Assembly: GCA_951812995.1 (NCBI GenBank)
Contig: CATOTD010000002.1
Location: 67,468-131,467, forward strand
DNA length: 64,000 bases
Direction of reading: 5' to 3'
Source of the DNA: an uncultured Gammaproteobacteria bacterium
GTDB taxonomy: Bacteria > Pseudomonadota > Gammaproteobacteria > Eutrophobiales > Eutrophobiaceae
Shown: piece by piece, positions 5,310 through 53,478 of the stretch
How positions within the stretch are numbered: position 1 is the stretch's first letter
How the letters are laid out: every line of letters begins with the position of its first letter
Translations under genes and position numbers: made by a program
Notes under the pieces: model-generated
Seen by the model: only the letters and a program-made list of their open reading frames with translations
What the model was told of the DNA's origin: nothing
The model's database searches: none

Positions 5310-6704
5310 TTAACGATCATGAGGATCCCCTCGTTGTTGCCGCTGTGTTTGGCTGGTCATGGGTTGAGGATCCAGCACCGCTACGGTTAGACGATCATCA
5401 ACCAAATATTTTTTTGCAACCATCATCACCTGCTCCGCCGTTATCGCTTTAACATTATCAACATAGCGGTCTGCAAGATGCCAGGACAACCCCACGGTCT
5501 CCAATATTCCAAGGATCATCGCTTGATAAAAAACCGAATCTTTTTCATAAACATCACTTGATATAACCTGTGCCTTAACACGTTGCAACTCTTCCGCGCT
5601 GACAGGATTATGTTGTAAATCCAATAACTCGTTGCGTAATGCTGTTTCAAGTGCTGCTACCGTCTTACCTTTTGCCGGCGTGCCGGACAGGATAAACAAA
5701 TTATCCAAACGGGAAATCATCCGATAACCCGCGCTGGCACCTGCTGCAACCTCCGCACCTCTTATAAGACGACTGGCAATGCGGGCACTGCTACCGCCAT
5801 CGAGTATTCCAGCCAACACTTCCAGGGCATAAGGCTCCCAGGCCAATGGGTTTTGTGCTTCGCCGTCGGCTGGCTTCACGACCGGTGTTTTATACGCCAT
5901 CATCAAATAAGGTAGTTCTGCGGGACGTTTAACCGTTACTCGCTTGGTCCCTTTTTGTGCGACTTCTTTGAGTGATTTTGGGGTCATTGCTGGGCCTGCC
6001 GGCAAGGGGCCAAAGTATTTTTTAGCCAGGGTCAACACGGCCTCTGGCTTTACATCGCCCGCCACCACCAGCGTTGCATTGTTGGGCGCATACCATTTTT
6101 TATACCAGACACTCAAATCCGCAACGGTCATATTATCTAGATCCTGCATCCAACCGATCACCGGGAAACGATAAGGACTCGTCTGAAATGCCGTTGCCAT
6201 CGCGACTTCATAAAGGTATGACTGCGGCCTGTCATCGGTACGCCAACGGCGTTCTTCTTTAACGACCTCGATCTCTTTGGCAAACGCGGTCTCAGGCAGG
6301 CTTAGAAAACGCATACGATCGGCTTCTAATTCAAAACTGATTGCCAGGCGTGATTTCTCCAGTGTTTGAAAATATGCCGTGTAATCGGGCCCGGTGAAGG
6401 CATTATCACTACCGCCATTTTCTGCAATGATGCGAGAAAACGCACCGTCTGGAAATTTTTCTGTACCTTTAAACATCATGTGTTCCAGCACATGGGACAG
6501 GCCAGTAATACCATCATGTTCATAACTGCCGCCTACTTTGTACCAGACTTGAGTGACGACGATAGGGGCGCGATGGTCTTCTTTAACCAGCAATTTAAGG
6601 CCGTTTTCCAAGCGAAATTCAGTCACTGTTGCATCAGCAAACACGGGGGTGATTAAAACCAGACTTAGTAAAACTATTTTCAGGGGTCGATAAGAATATT
6701 TCAT
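5310..6704 (-). CDS. M16-family zinc peptidase (PqqL/insulinase-like), catalytic subunit
   Basis: 464 aa with a signal peptide and the inverted zinc-binding motif HVLEHMMFKGT (HxxEH). Paired with the downstream inactive M16 homologue. Confidence 0.85.
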   Translation of the reverse strand: MKYSYRPLKIVLLSLVLITPVFADATVTEFRLENGLKLLVKEDHRAPIVVTQVWYKVGGSYEHDGITGLSHVLEHMMFKGTEKFPDGAFSRIIAENGGSDNAFTGPDYTAYFQTLEKSRLAISFELEADRMRFLSLPETAFAKEIEVVKEERRWRTDDRPQSYLYEVAMATAFQTSPYRFPVIGWMQDLDNMTVADLSVWYKKWYAPNNATLVVAGDVKPEAVLTLAKKYFGPLPAGPAMTPKSLKEVAQKGTKRVTVKRPAELPYLMMAYKTPVVKPADGEAQNPLAWEPYALEVLAGILDGGSSARIASRLIRGAEVAAGASAGYRMISRLDNLFILSGTPAKGKTVAALETALRNELLDLQHNPVSAEELQRVKAQVISSDVYEKDSVFYQAMILGILETVGLSWHLADRYVDNVKAITAEQVMMVAKKYLVDDRLTVAVLDPQPMTSQTQRQQRGDPHDR

Positions 6705-6825
6705 TTTTTATATGTCTTAAATTTAAGAAATCAAATCTTTATGTTGTGGACATTATAGCGTGCGGCCTTTGCACAAAACACCTTATTTGAAGGTTATGCC
6801 GGCAATGATGCCATTTTCGGATGCC

Positions 6826-7088
6826 CGCCGTGGGTCGGACTGGGTCGGATTGGGCCAAGCTGGGTCGAGCTGGGTCAAGCTGGGCCAAGTTGGGTCGAGC
6901 TGGGTCAAGCTGGGTCGAGTTGGGTCGGACGTGGGTTGAGTCGGATCGAGCTGGGTCAAGCTGGGCCGGGTTGGGTCGGACGTGGGTTGAGTCGGGTCGA
7001 GCTGGGTCGGGCTGGGTCAAGCTGGGTCGAGTTGGGTCGGGCTGGGCCAAGCTGGATCGGGCTGGGTCGGGTTGGGCCGGGTTGAGTC
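6826..7088. repeat. tandem array of ~26 copies of a 10-bp unit (consensus TGGGTCGAGC, variants TGGGTCGGAC / TGGGCCAAGC)
   Basis: Directly visible head-to-tail 10-mers in the intergenic region between the minus-strand M16 peptidase and ftsY. Both overlapping six-frame ORFs (6739..7050 and 6821..7093) are products of the repeat. Confidence 0.9.
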
Positions 7089-7188
7089 GTTAGTGCAAAG
7101 GTCTCAGTATGTATTTCTCTTTATGAGTTCGATATTACTTAGTGGTAGGATATGGCAATCTAACTGACAGCATATTGAAAAATTACGG

Positions 7189-8145
7189 GTGTTTGGTTTT
7201 AAGAAAAAAAGCATTGCTGATACAACTATCAATTCGGATGCAAAGGCAACACTCGCAGAACGCCTGAAACGTACCCGTACGGGTATGTTTGGCGGGTTGT
7301 TCAAACACAATAAAACGGTGATTGATAATGCCGCATTAGCAGATCTTGAAGACCGCCTGTTATTGGCTGACATCGGCATCAAAACAACCGATCAGATCAT
7401 GCAATTACTCAAGACTGACACAAACAAGCGCACGCTCAAAGACCCGCTCGAACAATTAAAAGAAATCCTGTTACCCACCCTGCAATCAGTCGCAAAAGGG
7501 CTGACTATTCCGGTTGTTGCAAACAAGCCCTATTTGATTTTGGTGGTAGGGGTCAACGGTGTCGGCAAGACCACCACCATCGGCAAACTTGCCAAACGAT
7601 TACAGCGTGAGGGTAAGACGGTCATGTTGGCAGCGGGCGACACCTTTCGCGCCGCGGCCATTGAACAACTGCAAGTCTGGGGCGAACGACATAACATTAG
7701 AGTGGTCGCGCAAGCACCAGGGGCCGACTCGGCCGCAGTTATTTTTGATGCCTTAAAGTCGGCGCGGGCCAATAATATTGATGTCTTAATCGCCGATACC
7801 GCCGGCCGCTTACACAATAAAAGCAACTTGATGGCAGAAATGAAAAAAATCCATCGCATCGGCAGCAAGTTTGATGCCGACTTGCACAGCGAAGTGTTAT
7901 TGATATTAGACGCTGGCACCGGTCAAAATGCGTTGATACAAGCGCAACAGTTCCATGACATTATTGGTGTTGACGGGATCGTCTTAACCAAACTTGATGG
8001 GACTGCAAAAGGCGGGATTGTGTTTTTACTCGCCGAAGAACTAGGCATCCCGATACGATTTATTGGTGTGGGTGAACAGGTTGAGGATTTACGACCCTTT
8101 AATGCCGTCGAATTTATGGATGCCCTACTCAGAGATAAGCCATGA
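7189..8145 (+). CDS. ftsY: signal recognition particle receptor FtsY
   Basis: SRP GTPase motifs (VGVNGVGKTTTIGKLA, DTAGRL, TKLDGTAKGG) and conserved ftsY-ftsE-ftsX order. Confidence 0.9.
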   Translation: MFGFKKKSIADTTINSDAKATLAERLKRTRTGMFGGLFKHNKTVIDNAALADLEDRLLLADIGIKTTDQIMQLLKTDTNKRTLKDPLEQLKEILLPTLQSVAKGLTIPVVANKPYLILVVGVNGVGKTTTIGKLAKRLQREGKTVMLAAGDTFRAAAIEQLQVWGERHNIRVVAQAPGADSAAVIFDALKSARANNIDVLIADTAGRLHNKSNLMAEMKKIHRIGSKFDADLHSEVLLILDAGTGQNALIQAQQFHDIIGVDGIVLTKLDGTAKGGIVFLLAEELGIPIRFIGVGEQVEDLRPFNAVEFMDALLRDKP

Positions 8146-12702: not shown

Positions 12703-12726
12703 CGCAACTACTTGACAAGGGCCCGG

Positions 12727-12790
12727 TTGAAGTCGGTCGGAGCTGGTCGAGGTTGGTCGGAGTCGGGCCGAGGCCGATCGAAGCGTGTCT
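12727..12790. repeat. short array (~6 units) of the same 10-bp repeat family (GCTGGTCGAG / GTTGGTCGGA)
   Basis: Visible 10-mer periodicity between the methyltransferase stop and phoB; same unit family and orientation as the 6826..7088 array. Confidence 0.7.
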
Positions 12791-12863
12791 GCTGAACGGG
12801 GATCATTTAAGGTCTTTTTTGTAATGAAGCTGTAATATTATTCTTTTCTAATACACCGCAGGC

Positions 12864-13577
12864 ATGAGTCGCACATTGCATAAAACAAAAGCAACAATAC
12901 TGATCGTCGAAGACGAGGCGGCGATTCGCGCCATGCTGGACTATGCCTTGACGCAACAAGGTCTCCATTGTGTTGCAGCGGCCGCTGTCGAAGAGGCAAA
13001 GAGGATAATAGAGGCAACCCCGCCCGATCTTATATTACTGGACTGGATGTTGCCCGGCATGAGTGGCATCGACTATGCGCGACGTTTACGTAGCACCTCG
13101 GCAACACAAGACATCCCGATCATAATGTTGACGGCAAAAGGTGAAGAGGCAGATAAGGTGATAGCGCTTGATGCGGGTGCCGATGATTACGTGACTAAAC
13201 CCTTCTCAACCAAGGAGTTGATCGCACGGGTCAATGCGGTGCTGAGACGCTATGCCGATGCGAATGAGGCGGGTGTGATCAATGTCAATGGGCTGGTGCT
13301 GGATCCGTATACTTATCGTGTCACGGTGGATGATCAGGTTATCGGCATGACGGCCACCGAGTTTAAATTACTGCATTTCTTTATCACACATCCGGAACGG
13401 GTGTATAGTCGGTCGCAGATACTGGATCAAGTTTGGGGTGAGCATATTTACGTTGAAGAACGTACGGTCGATGTGCATATTCGCAGGCTGAGAAAAAAAC
13501 TGGAGTCGGAGTCATTTAATTTTGATAAATTTATACGGACTGTTCGCAGTGTTGGTTATTTTTTTTCCACCCGTTAA
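12864..13577 (+). CDS. phoB: phosphate regulon response regulator PhoB
   Basis: REC domain (ILIVEDEAAIRAML...DLILLDWMLPGMSG) plus a winged-helix OmpR/PhoB output domain. Followed by phoR and the pst operon. Confidence 0.9.
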   Translation: MSRTLHKTKATILIVEDEAAIRAMLDYALTQQGLHCVAAAAVEEAKRIIEATPPDLILLDWMLPGMSGIDYARRLRSTSATQDIPIIMLTAKGEEADKVIALDAGADDYVTKPFSTKELIARVNAVLRRYADANEAGVINVNGLVLDPYTYRVTVDDQVIGMTATEFKLLHFFITHPERVYSRSQILDQVWGEHIYVEERTVDVHIRRLRKKLESESFNFDKFIRTVRSVGYFFSTR

Positions 13578-45014: not shown

Positions 45015-45725
45015 TTACCGGTTGTTAATCTGGCTCACGATCTCATCTGGCGGCATATAGCCTGGTAACATGTCGCCATTTTGTAGATAGATTGCAGGCG
45101 TGCCACGCACACCTAATTTTTGCCCCAGGGCATATTGTTCAGCGACGGGATCATCACAAGATTTGGCGGCTACTGGTTCTCTATTTTTTGCGGCTGTCAA
45201 TGCCGTTTGTCGGTTATCAGCACACCATACATGACGCATTTTACGACCTATGGCCGACTCGGTGCCGGTGCGTGGATAAGCCAGGTAGCGCACGGTAATC
45301 CCTAGCGCATTTAGTGTCGGCACATCAAGATGGAGTTTTCTGCAATAGCCGCAATCAACATCAGTAAAAACATAGATAGTGTCTTGCGCATGTTGCGATG
45401 CAAACTCGATATAGTCATCTTTCGCAATCGTCTTGAGCAATTTTATTCTGGCATTGGATCGGACTTCTTCGGTCAGGTTGCGACGTTCATTCGCATCGAG
45501 CAAATCACCTCTGAATACATAATTGCCATCGCCGGTCATGTAAATAATATCTGTGCCGATGACAACCTGGTAGAGACCATCAACCGGTGTCGCTTGCACG
45601 CTGTCAATTTCTACATCCGGCAACAATCTGGCCAAGGCGGCGTTTAATTCAGCGTTGCGGTCATCTGCGGCCAGCGCTACTGATGAGATAAAAATACCCA
45701 GCAATAAAAACGGACTGAATTTCAT
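45015..45725 (-). CDS. dsbC: thiol:disulfide interchange protein DsbC/DsbG family
   Basis: 236 aa with a signal peptide, an N-terminal dimerisation region and a thioredoxin fold with CGYC active site (FTDVDCGYCRKLH). Confidence 0.85.
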   Translation of the reverse strand: MKFSPFLLLGIFISSVALAADDRNAELNAALARLLPDVEIDSVQATPVDGLYQVVIGTDIIYMTGDGNYVFRGDLLDANERRNLTEEVRSNARIKLLKTIAKDDYIEFASQHAQDTIYVFTDVDCGYCRKLHLDVPTLNALGITVRYLAYPRTGTESAIGRKMRHVWCADNRQTALTAAKNREPVAAKSCDDPVAEQYALGQKLGVRGTPAIYLQNGDMLPGYMPPDEIVSQINNR

Positions 45726-45738
45726 GTGTGCTCCCTAG

Positions 45739-45850
45739 GTTATGGTGTATTTAGGTTATGGTGTATTTAGGTTATGGTGTATTTAGGTTATGGTGTATTT
45801 AGGTTATGGTGTATTTAGGTTATGGTGTATTTAGGTTATCGTGTATTTAG
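45739..45850. repeat. 7 tandem copies of a 16-bp unit GTTATGGTGTATTTAG (last copy GTTATCGTGTATTTAG)
   Basis: Perfect head-to-tail repeats immediately upstream of the dsbC start codon (45725, minus strand), in the divergent region shared with the 45972 gene. Confidence 0.9.
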
Positions 45851-53390: not shown

Positions 53391-53478
53391 CTGGCCAAAG
53401 AACTAAAGAAACTGAACCCAAAGAAACTGAACCCAAAGAAACTGAACCCAAAGAAACTGAACCCAAAGAAACTGGGCA
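53391..53478 (+). repeat. about 4.7 tandem copies of a 15-bp unit AAAGAAACTGAACCC ending 2 nt before the start codon of the giant surface protein gene
   Basis: Directly visible; preceded by a degenerate copy (CCAAAGAACTAAAG) and by a TTGACA hexamer at 53327. Confidence 0.85.

Follow-up and report, generated by a model that had tools for sequence, protein, structure and literature searches.

A G-rich decamer array on an inserted segment between a peptidase gene and ftsY in an uncultured gammaproteobacterium

The stretch of DNA analysed here (64,000 nt; hereafter the window) comes from an uncultured gammaproteobacterium of the family Eutrophobiaceae and covers positions 67,468 to 131,467 of contig CATOTD010000002.1 (assembly GCA_951812995.1). 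According to the list of open reading frames (ORFs), a gene for an M16 peptidase (window positions 5310–6704, minus strand) and ftsY (7189–8145, plus strand) point away from a common spacer of 484 bp, and ftsE, ftsX and rpoH lie 3' of ftsY. This spacer hosts a tandem array (array 1, 6831–7089), G-rich on the plus strand, of about 26 head-to-tail units of TGGGTCGAGC. FtsY (318 aa) has the same length as its nearest homologues, which are about 80% identical (the closest 81%, among 5.8 billion proteins); ftsY therefore starts where the ORF list puts it, and array 1 is not an N-terminal extension of FtsY. A second, shorter array (array 2) lies upstream of phoB.

An earlier note on this DNA had described a tandem array between the peptidase gene and ftsY, and the array is real. 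Tandem Repeats Finder reports 23.7 copies of a 10-bp period at 6831–7069 (score 208) with the consensus TGGGTCGAGC, and a unit-by-unit layout made by eye and by script resolves 25 full units and one partial unit, two of the units being 11 bp long. A degenerate three-unit pattern (TGGGYCRRRY repeated) matches the window 12 times, compared with no match in 100 shuffles. We conclude that array 1 is a tandem repeat, with head-to-tail units of about 10 bp or longer beyond what chance provides. Its units are contiguous, with no spacers between them, and it contains no inverted repeats of 20 nt or more; it is thus neither a clustered regularly interspaced short palindromic repeat (CRISPR) array nor a repetitive extragenic palindromic (REP) element, as had been stated before. 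Of known structured RNAs, no Rfam match at gathering score and no tRNA was found anywhere in the window.

The array creates stop-free ORFs on both strands (90 aa on the plus strand, 103 aa on the minus strand), just as the earlier note had reported, and a repetitive protein could in principle be encoded on one of them. However, the unit is free of stop codons in all six frames from its composition alone, its period of 10 is not a multiple of three, 1-bp indels interrupt it and no Pfam match exceeds the threshold. The locus is also absent in relatives, whereas the FtsY start downstream is conserved. Membership of a conserved protein-coding gene in relatives had been named as a possible refutation of the non-coding claim; the corresponding spacers of the relatives carry no array, so this is not the case. 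Array 1 is non-coding, and the coding reading, to which we assign next to no probability, is effectively refuted.

When the bases are recoded as purines and pyrimidines, array 1 becomes a perfect 5-base repeat, (YRRRY)n, interrupted solely by two inserted G's. The three resulting runs measure 100, 50 and 107 nt (6831–6930, 6932–6981 and 6983–7089), and no other (YRRRY)n run of 18 nt or more occurs on either strand of the window. This perfect purine/pyrimidine periodicity is the one unusual feature of array 1. All 41 departures from the consensus are transitions, as are all 742 pairwise differences between units, and the minimum spanning tree joining the 14 distinct unit types takes 13 steps, each of them a transition. 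If two thirds of all changes are taken to be transitions, a transition-only outcome has a probability of 0.04 when one event is counted per variable site and of 0.006 when tree steps are counted; array 2 independently shows the same behaviour, which pushes the combined probability lower. Transition-only variation was rejected as a general rule, since units outside the search seed in other genomes differ by 450 transitions and 323 transversions, with one subset strongly biased.

A record of growth is also preserved in the array. Tandem Repeats Finder detects a 51-bp higher-order repeat on the plus strand at 6851–7029 (3.5 copies, 84% matches), and the blocks that begin at 6921 and 6972 are alike over their first 36 nt save for one base, both including an 11-bp variant unit. 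The single G inserted at 6931, which breaks the register, is present again at 6982 (both plus strand), so the variant unit was duplicated as part of a larger block. Array 1 has therefore grown by duplication of multi-unit blocks, and it possesses the higher-order structure by which growth through slippage or unequal exchange is recognised. The same structure counts against the idea that the repeat is in truth simpler and perfect, its degeneracy being an artefact of assembly or base calling. G-rich tandem repeats are trouble spots for long-read base calling and transition-type confusions are typical of them, yet the variants here are structured, to the point that the 36-nt block was duplicated almost exactly together with its 1-bp insertion, and only two indels occur in 259 bp. 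Moreover, the pattern is repeated independently in array 2, and a similar architecture is found in unrelated assemblies, for example that of Actinokineospora (locus L041). We regard an artefact as very improbable.

The two halves of the unit do not vary alike. The first pentamer reads TGGGY in 22 of 25 units, while the second occurs in nine forms; departures from the consensus number 9 in the first half-unit and 32 in the second. GGG is kept in 23 of the 25 units while the loops vary, and a six-base core, TGGGTC, is 76–94% conserved, the remaining four bases being variable. A conserved core recurring at a fixed spacing of 10 bp would suit an array of phased protein-binding sites, comparable to iterons, plasmid centromeres or operators, in which a protein on TGGGTC coats or wraps the spacer and regulates or insulates the divergent promoters. 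The earlier note had listed a phased protein-binding array among possible roles, and had every copy presenting the same face of the helix. This holds for neighbouring copies but not for the array as a whole: a period of 10.0 bp set against about 10.5–10.6 bp per turn makes the binding face drift by some 17 degrees with each unit, so that 25 units cover more than one complete turn. On some phage contigs, TGGGCCA or TGGGTCA sites recur about every 10 bp in clusters that do have the look of binding-site arrays, but they are of mixed orientation and variable spacing and so represent a different architecture. No candidate for a cognate gene lies beside array 1, and relatives without the array have kept both flanking genes. 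Being absent in relatives, the array has no conserved function. Elsewhere in the window TGGGTC is about as frequent as chance predicts (26 copies, with 24 expected), a palindromic version of it was not found, and the binding-site model leaves the transition-only variation of the spacers unexplained. We consider phased binding sites unlikely.

Intrinsic bending, another role suggested by the earlier note, fared no better. The predicted curvature of array 1 is 7.2 degrees per turn compared with 6.2 ± 1.3 in window tiles. It is exceeded by 101 of the 495 tiles, and controls with A-tracts reach 22–28; these values come from our own implementation of a wedge model and are given low weight. As the prediction is at the background level of the window, intrinsically curved DNA is not supported.

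Folding potential is confined to one strand. With a canonical G-quadruplex motif defined as four tracts of at least three G's separated by 1–7 nt, 16 overlapping motifs were found in the 64 kb, all 16 of them in array 1 on the plus strand; the minus strand has none. The mean G4Hunter score of the array is 0.99 over 258 bp, with a peak of 1.56 at 7057–7083, and the densest stretch of G-tracts (7059–7081, plus strand; five GGG runs spaced by 5 and separated by 2-nt loops) is predicted to be the strongest quadruplex candidate. Folded as single-stranded DNA, the G-rich strand attains −48.7 kcal/mol compared with −29.4 ± 2.9 in shuffles (z = −6.7; none of 200 shuffles as good), whereas the C-rich strand folds at chance level (z = +1.3). 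The pairing deduced from the sequence consists of 4-bp helices split by single mismatches, AGCT with AGCT and GGTC with GGTC, the latter through G–T pairs.

These properties raise the alternative of a functional G-quadruplex or i-motif element, in which a plus-strand quadruplex, driven by the negative supercoils that arise from divergent transcription, would tune the promoters of ftsY, the peptidase gene or both. That the window has its canonical motifs nowhere but in array 1, that GGG persists in 23 units despite variable loops and that the array stands between divergent promoters would all fit such an element. There is also a precedent, since dispersed G-rich repeats of the GGGNATC and GGGGA(C/T)T types in Xanthomonas and Nostoc form G-quadruplexes (Rehm et al. 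2015, PMC4692102); that class, however, is rarer than expected in spacers of divergent ORFs, and the authors who described it found no role in regulation (PMC4692102). Against the alternative, the loops are mostly 7 nt long, which makes for weak quadruplexes, and ordinary coding segments of the window reach similar G4Hunter peaks. The 25 units far exceed the four tracts that a quadruplex needs, array 2 has GG tracts only, the transition-only loops are left unexplained, and relatives lack the array. A regulatory quadruplex thus appears improbable to us.

Array 1 makes up three quarters of a 346-bp segment (6761–7106, 63% G+C) that is bounded by an imperfect inverted repeat. The left arm, TGCGGCCTTTGCACAAA (6761–6777), pairs with the right arm, TTAGTGCAAAGGTCTCA (7090–7106), at 14 of 17 positions around a 9-bp perfect core; the two arms are also written TGCGGCCTTTGCAC and GTGCAAAGG. 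Among 3,000 shuffles of the flanking segments, complementarity of this order was rare (P = 0.004 for a run of at least 9 bp, P = 0.0003 for 14 of 17). Four related loci (L001, L007, L008 and L149) have the same gene order and spacers of 132–143 bp with no array, and the segment is lacking from these and from a fifth, L148. Without these 346 bp, the 484-bp spacer would measure 138 bp, which restores the length seen in the relatives. The segment is thus an insertion, and it has the terminal inverted repeats of a miniature inverted-repeat transposable element (MITE); judged by these comparisons, it is also absent from the orthologous site with precise boundaries. In the fifth relative, this spacer is interrupted by another, unlike insertion of about 245 bp (L148, 2706–2950), with clear terminal inverted repeats of 21 nt (GACCTGCATATTACACGAATT and AATTCGTGCAATATTGCAGGTT), placed within the conserved ftsY upstream block just upstream of a TGnTAGGAT element. 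The peptidase–ftsY spacer therefore accepts small elements of this kind. No purine/pyrimidine-periodic array was found in 155 kb of relatives' loci. The inverted-repeat-bounded insertion had been missed by the earlier note, as had the 5-bp purine/pyrimidine periodicity, the transition-only variation and the potential for G-quadruplex formation and fold-back.

In the assembly that contains two of these relatives (GCA_025450675.1; L007 and L148), we noticed two differing loci with the order peptidase–peptidase–ftsY–ftsE–ftsX–rpoH on separate contigs, encoding FtsY proteins of 318 and 319 aa. This duplication suggests that two genomes were binned together.

The segment lies close to both putative promoters. 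On its left, a perfect TATAAT on the minus strand (6752–6757) is separated from the left arm by 3 bp and precedes the start codon of the peptidase gene by 48 nt; as a candidate −10 element, it suggests that the peptidase promoter abuts the insertion. On its right, downstream of array 1, a block upstream of ftsY (7111–7188, plus strand) is conserved in the alignment with relatives (GTATTTCTCTTTATGAGTTCGATAT...TGGTAGGATA) and contains TGGTAGGAT, a candidate extended −10 element. With TATAAT beside the left arm and the ftsY block beyond the right arm, array 1 would occupy a zone that neither of the divergent promoters transcribes. In scans with consensus sequences, the spacers of array 1 and array 2 yielded no strong promoter or terminator. 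Assignment of the replication strand from GC skew was abandoned, the skew being inconsistent across the window.

Array 2 (12725–12784, plus strand) comprises six units of GGTCGRRGYY with an inserted G at 12765. The earlier note had placed a second array of the same family upstream of the phoB promoter, and this array does exist, although it is weaker and in another register: Tandem Repeats Finder sees just 2.8 copies. It is nevertheless the top match outside array 1 to the array 1 position-weight matrix (11.6 bits, compared with at most 3.9 in the null). Recoded as purines and pyrimidines, it becomes a perfect RRYYRRRRYY repeat at a lag of 10 bp, a run for which 20 shuffles gave no counterpart, and its variation is of the transition type, the sole transversions falling at its terminal base. 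The array starts 23 nt past the stop codon of a gene for an S-adenosylmethionine-dependent methyltransferase and ends about 35 nt before TTGTAAT-gaag-CTGTAAT (12819–12836, plus strand), a candidate Pho box by its resemblance to the E. coli consensus, which lies between the array and the phoB start codon at 12864. It has GG tracts only, with no GGG, and so forms no canonical G-quadruplex motif. The description of a dispersed family stands for these two arrays within 64 kb, and is shown no further than that.

The setting of array 2 differs from that of array 1. When window positions 12703–12863 are compared with three related loci (L128, L130 and L132), gene order breaks directly after the methyltransferase gene, with array 2 at the junction: a His_Phos_1 gene, ppx and ppk follow in the relatives, phoB and phoR in the window. 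Because a different gene comes next in the relatives, there is no orthologous spacer with which array 2 could be compared. Array 2 is best explained as a shorter, more decayed relative of array 1 at a break in gene order. Two observations were made nearby. The equivalent spacer of L128 (4832–5087) holds an odd purine-rich sequence with a rhythm of about 10 bp, and an imperfect palindrome (ACTTGACAAGGGCCC / GGGCCCGGTTGAAGT, window 12710–12733, centred on GGGCCC) comes directly after the stop codon of the methyltransferase gene and extends into the first unit of array 2.

Similar arrays were sought by scanning a genome collection with the three-unit degenerate pattern, which returned at least 119 loci. 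Most of the matches listed are in high-GC bacteria; among the lower-GC ones is an array in Arenicella sp. with 4.7 perfect copies. In an intergenic region of Candidatus Phytoplasma sacchari (L035, 4138–4227), whose genome has 23% G+C, TGGGTCAGAC (60% G+C) is repeated nine times without a change. In Actinokineospora sp. G85 (L041, 5822–6078), about 25 degenerate CTGGGCCGRG units upstream of a small gene form a perfect (YRRRY)n run of 219 nt and a second run after a 1-nt indel, the architecture of array 1. Couchioplanes (L083) likewise has extended (YRRRY)n runs that are perfect except for indels of a single base. In three Vicinamibacteria genomes, short arrays of (TGGGTCRGGT)n occupy numerous intergenic positions, each with flanks of its own; in two metagenome-assembled genomes (MAGs) of this group we noted the loci L034, L052, L064, L085, L087, L092, L093, L106, L114 and L123 (MAG 1) and L013, L026, L028, L038 and others (MAG 2). 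Acidobacteriota thus possess a decamer-repeat family that is truly dispersed; its GGG tracts recur every 5 nt and make a strong predicted G-quadruplex motif.

A special family that crosses phyla was considered and rejected. In viral contigs the real pattern matched 11 loci, whereas composition-matched reversed or permuted controls matched 4, 33 and 4; the many hits elsewhere are therefore what any decamer repeat would give. Three related viral contigs drew our attention for another reason: L143 (7740–8100), and also L134 and L142, contain a non-coding region of about 350 bp dense in CTGGGCCA in both orientations, together with repeated TTTGGTAACG, and this region looks like a phage operator or origin. 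A literature search found no papers on the repeat sequences. It is conceivable, if doubtful, that (YRRRY)n constitutes a distinct class of bacterial repeat that changes only by transitions, through a specific process or through selection on the shape or fold-back structure of the G-rich strand; the perfect periodicity would then be more than a by-product. Possible processes would be half-unit out-of-register pairing with wobble-type mismatch correction, or deamination of extruded hairpin or quadruplex strands.

Array 1 shares traits with several known systems. Like the loci used in multiple-locus variable-number tandem repeat (VNTR) analysis (MLVA) of bacteria, it is an intergenic head-to-tail repeat with units of at least 10 bp, higher-order duplications and a lineage-specific occurrence; its transition-only degeneracy and perfect purine/pyrimidine periodicity set it apart from VNTRs generally. 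Copy-number polymorphism is the defining property of VNTR loci. The segment resembles MITEs and the pneumococcal BOX element (boxA-(boxB)n-boxC) in being small, non-coding, bounded by inverted repeats, fitted with an internal tandem module and absent at the relatives' site, but no second copy, target-site duplication or related transposase is known for it, and its unit measures 10 bp compared with about 45 bp. In its predicted behaviour the array recalls expansion-prone repeats of eukaryotes, such as the CEB1 minisatellite and C9orf72 (GGGGCC)n: its G-rich strand is predicted to form imperfect hairpins and quadruplexes and its C-rich strand is not, although here the host is bacterial and the unit is different. 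By this analogy, array 1 would behave as an expansion-prone G-rich repeat, a G-rich strand capable of hairpins and quadruplexes favouring slippage and block duplication.

Two further systems are bacterial. The dispersed G-rich repeats of Xanthomonas and Nostoc, for which no function is known, vary in copy number and sequence between relatives (PMC4692102). Array 1 resembles them as a non-coding, strand-asymmetric, G-rich tandem repeat in which each unit has a single GGG and the units number up to 26. It also shares with them a succession of four or more G3 tracts whose loops do not exceed 7 nt, which array 2 does not. Unlike those heptamers (GGGNATC or GGGGAYT), it has a unit of 10 bp, or 5 bp in purine/pyrimidine letters, degenerates by transitions only and counts 25 units instead of their preferred four. 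It also stands between divergent genes, where they are under-represented, is embedded in an inverted-repeat-bounded insertion, and is one of two known loci in 64 kb, compared with hundreds of loci. The Nostoc heptamers are of a kind long known in cyanobacteria as short tandemly repeated repetitive (STRR) sequences. The TAACTGA direct repeats of marine Beggiatoaceae occupy many intergenic regions, with 169 loci in one genome (MacGregor 2015, PMC4679880). They too are short, tandem and intergenic, and their hosts are sulfur-oxidising gammaproteobacteria, but they are AT-rich heptamers in near-perfect copies, and nothing like their 169 loci has been shown for array 1.

Our preferred reading, held with moderate confidence, is that array 1 is a lineage-specific, non-coding, G-rich minisatellite which rides on a MITE-like insertion and which slippage, assisted by DNA structures, has expanded. 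A small MITE-like segment with inverted repeats would have inserted where the promoters of the M16 peptidase gene and ftsY stand back to back, and the array may have arisen or been seeded inside it. There, a G-rich decamer would have expanded through slipped-strand mispairing or unequal exchange, aided by hairpins and quadruplexes that form on the G-rich strand only, as in expansion-prone repeats; the negative supercoiling of the zone between divergent promoters would favour such non-B DNA. The units would then have diverged by transitions alone, by either of two routes. Since both pentamers share one purine/pyrimidine pattern, pairing 5 nt out of register gives only G–T and A–C mismatches, and correction of such heteroduplexes between copies paired 5 or 10 nt out of register would shuffle transitions between units. 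Alternatively, strands exposed by the structures may have been deaminated. The copy number of the array is probably unstable and variable. A dedicated sequence-specific function would be lacking; any effect would be structural, the two promoters being pushed apart and the array acting as a sink for the negative supercoils of divergent transcription.

Two further intergenic tandem repeats in the window, perfect or near-perfect, are located at 45734–45850 and 53405–53474, and this genome thus seems prone to such repeats. The repeat at 45734–45850 consists of 7.2 near-perfect copies of a 16-bp unit (TAGGTTATGGTGTATT) in a divergent spacer; it begins some 10 bp before the start codon, on its upstream side, of a minus-strand ORF (45015–45725) and looks like a VNTR in a promoter or leader. 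The one at 53405–53474 has 4.7 perfect copies of a 15-bp unit (AAAGAAACTGAACCC) and ends 7 nt before the ATG (53481) of a 1373-aa ORF, so that it occupies the expected position of the ribosome-binding site.

Several points weigh against the minisatellite reading. Copy-number instability was not observed, the databases searched holding no conspecific genome. The window and 1.1 Mb of fetched loci contain no second copy of the 346-bp segment, nor did one emerge when the metagenome collection was scanned with a 21-mer from the left flank of the insertion, whose one match was a chance match in a coding sequence; the non-repeat left part of the insertion (6778–6830) likewise has no further copy in the window or in the fetched loci. 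A clear target-site duplication was not seen at the two junctions, GTAT being doubled on the right side only. With one known copy, no clear target-site duplication and unmatched flanks, the MITE status of the segment is unproven. Array 2 has neither a flanking inverted repeat nor GGG tracts; an account by the carrier or by G-quadruplexes thus applies to array 1 but not to array 2. The transition-only divergence exceeds ordinary mutation spectra, and we account for it here by inference alone. Finally, the stronger conservation of TGGGY (9 departures compared with 32) is also what a functional core, be it a G-tract or a binding site, would lead one to expect.

If the minisatellite reading is correct, array 1 is chiefly a marker: it is likely to be hypervariable, as the earlier note had envisaged, and could then be used for strain typing, while our understanding of ftsY or the peptidase genes is unchanged by it. 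It would also offer a natural bacterial repeat prone to hairpins and G-quadruplexes, placed where divergent transcription makes negative supercoils, and would indicate that small insertions bounded by inverted repeats can carry, or give rise to, minisatellites in bacteria. Its transition-only, purine/pyrimidine-perfect degeneracy provides a clean and easily searched signature which, if general, would inform how such repeats mutate and homogenise.

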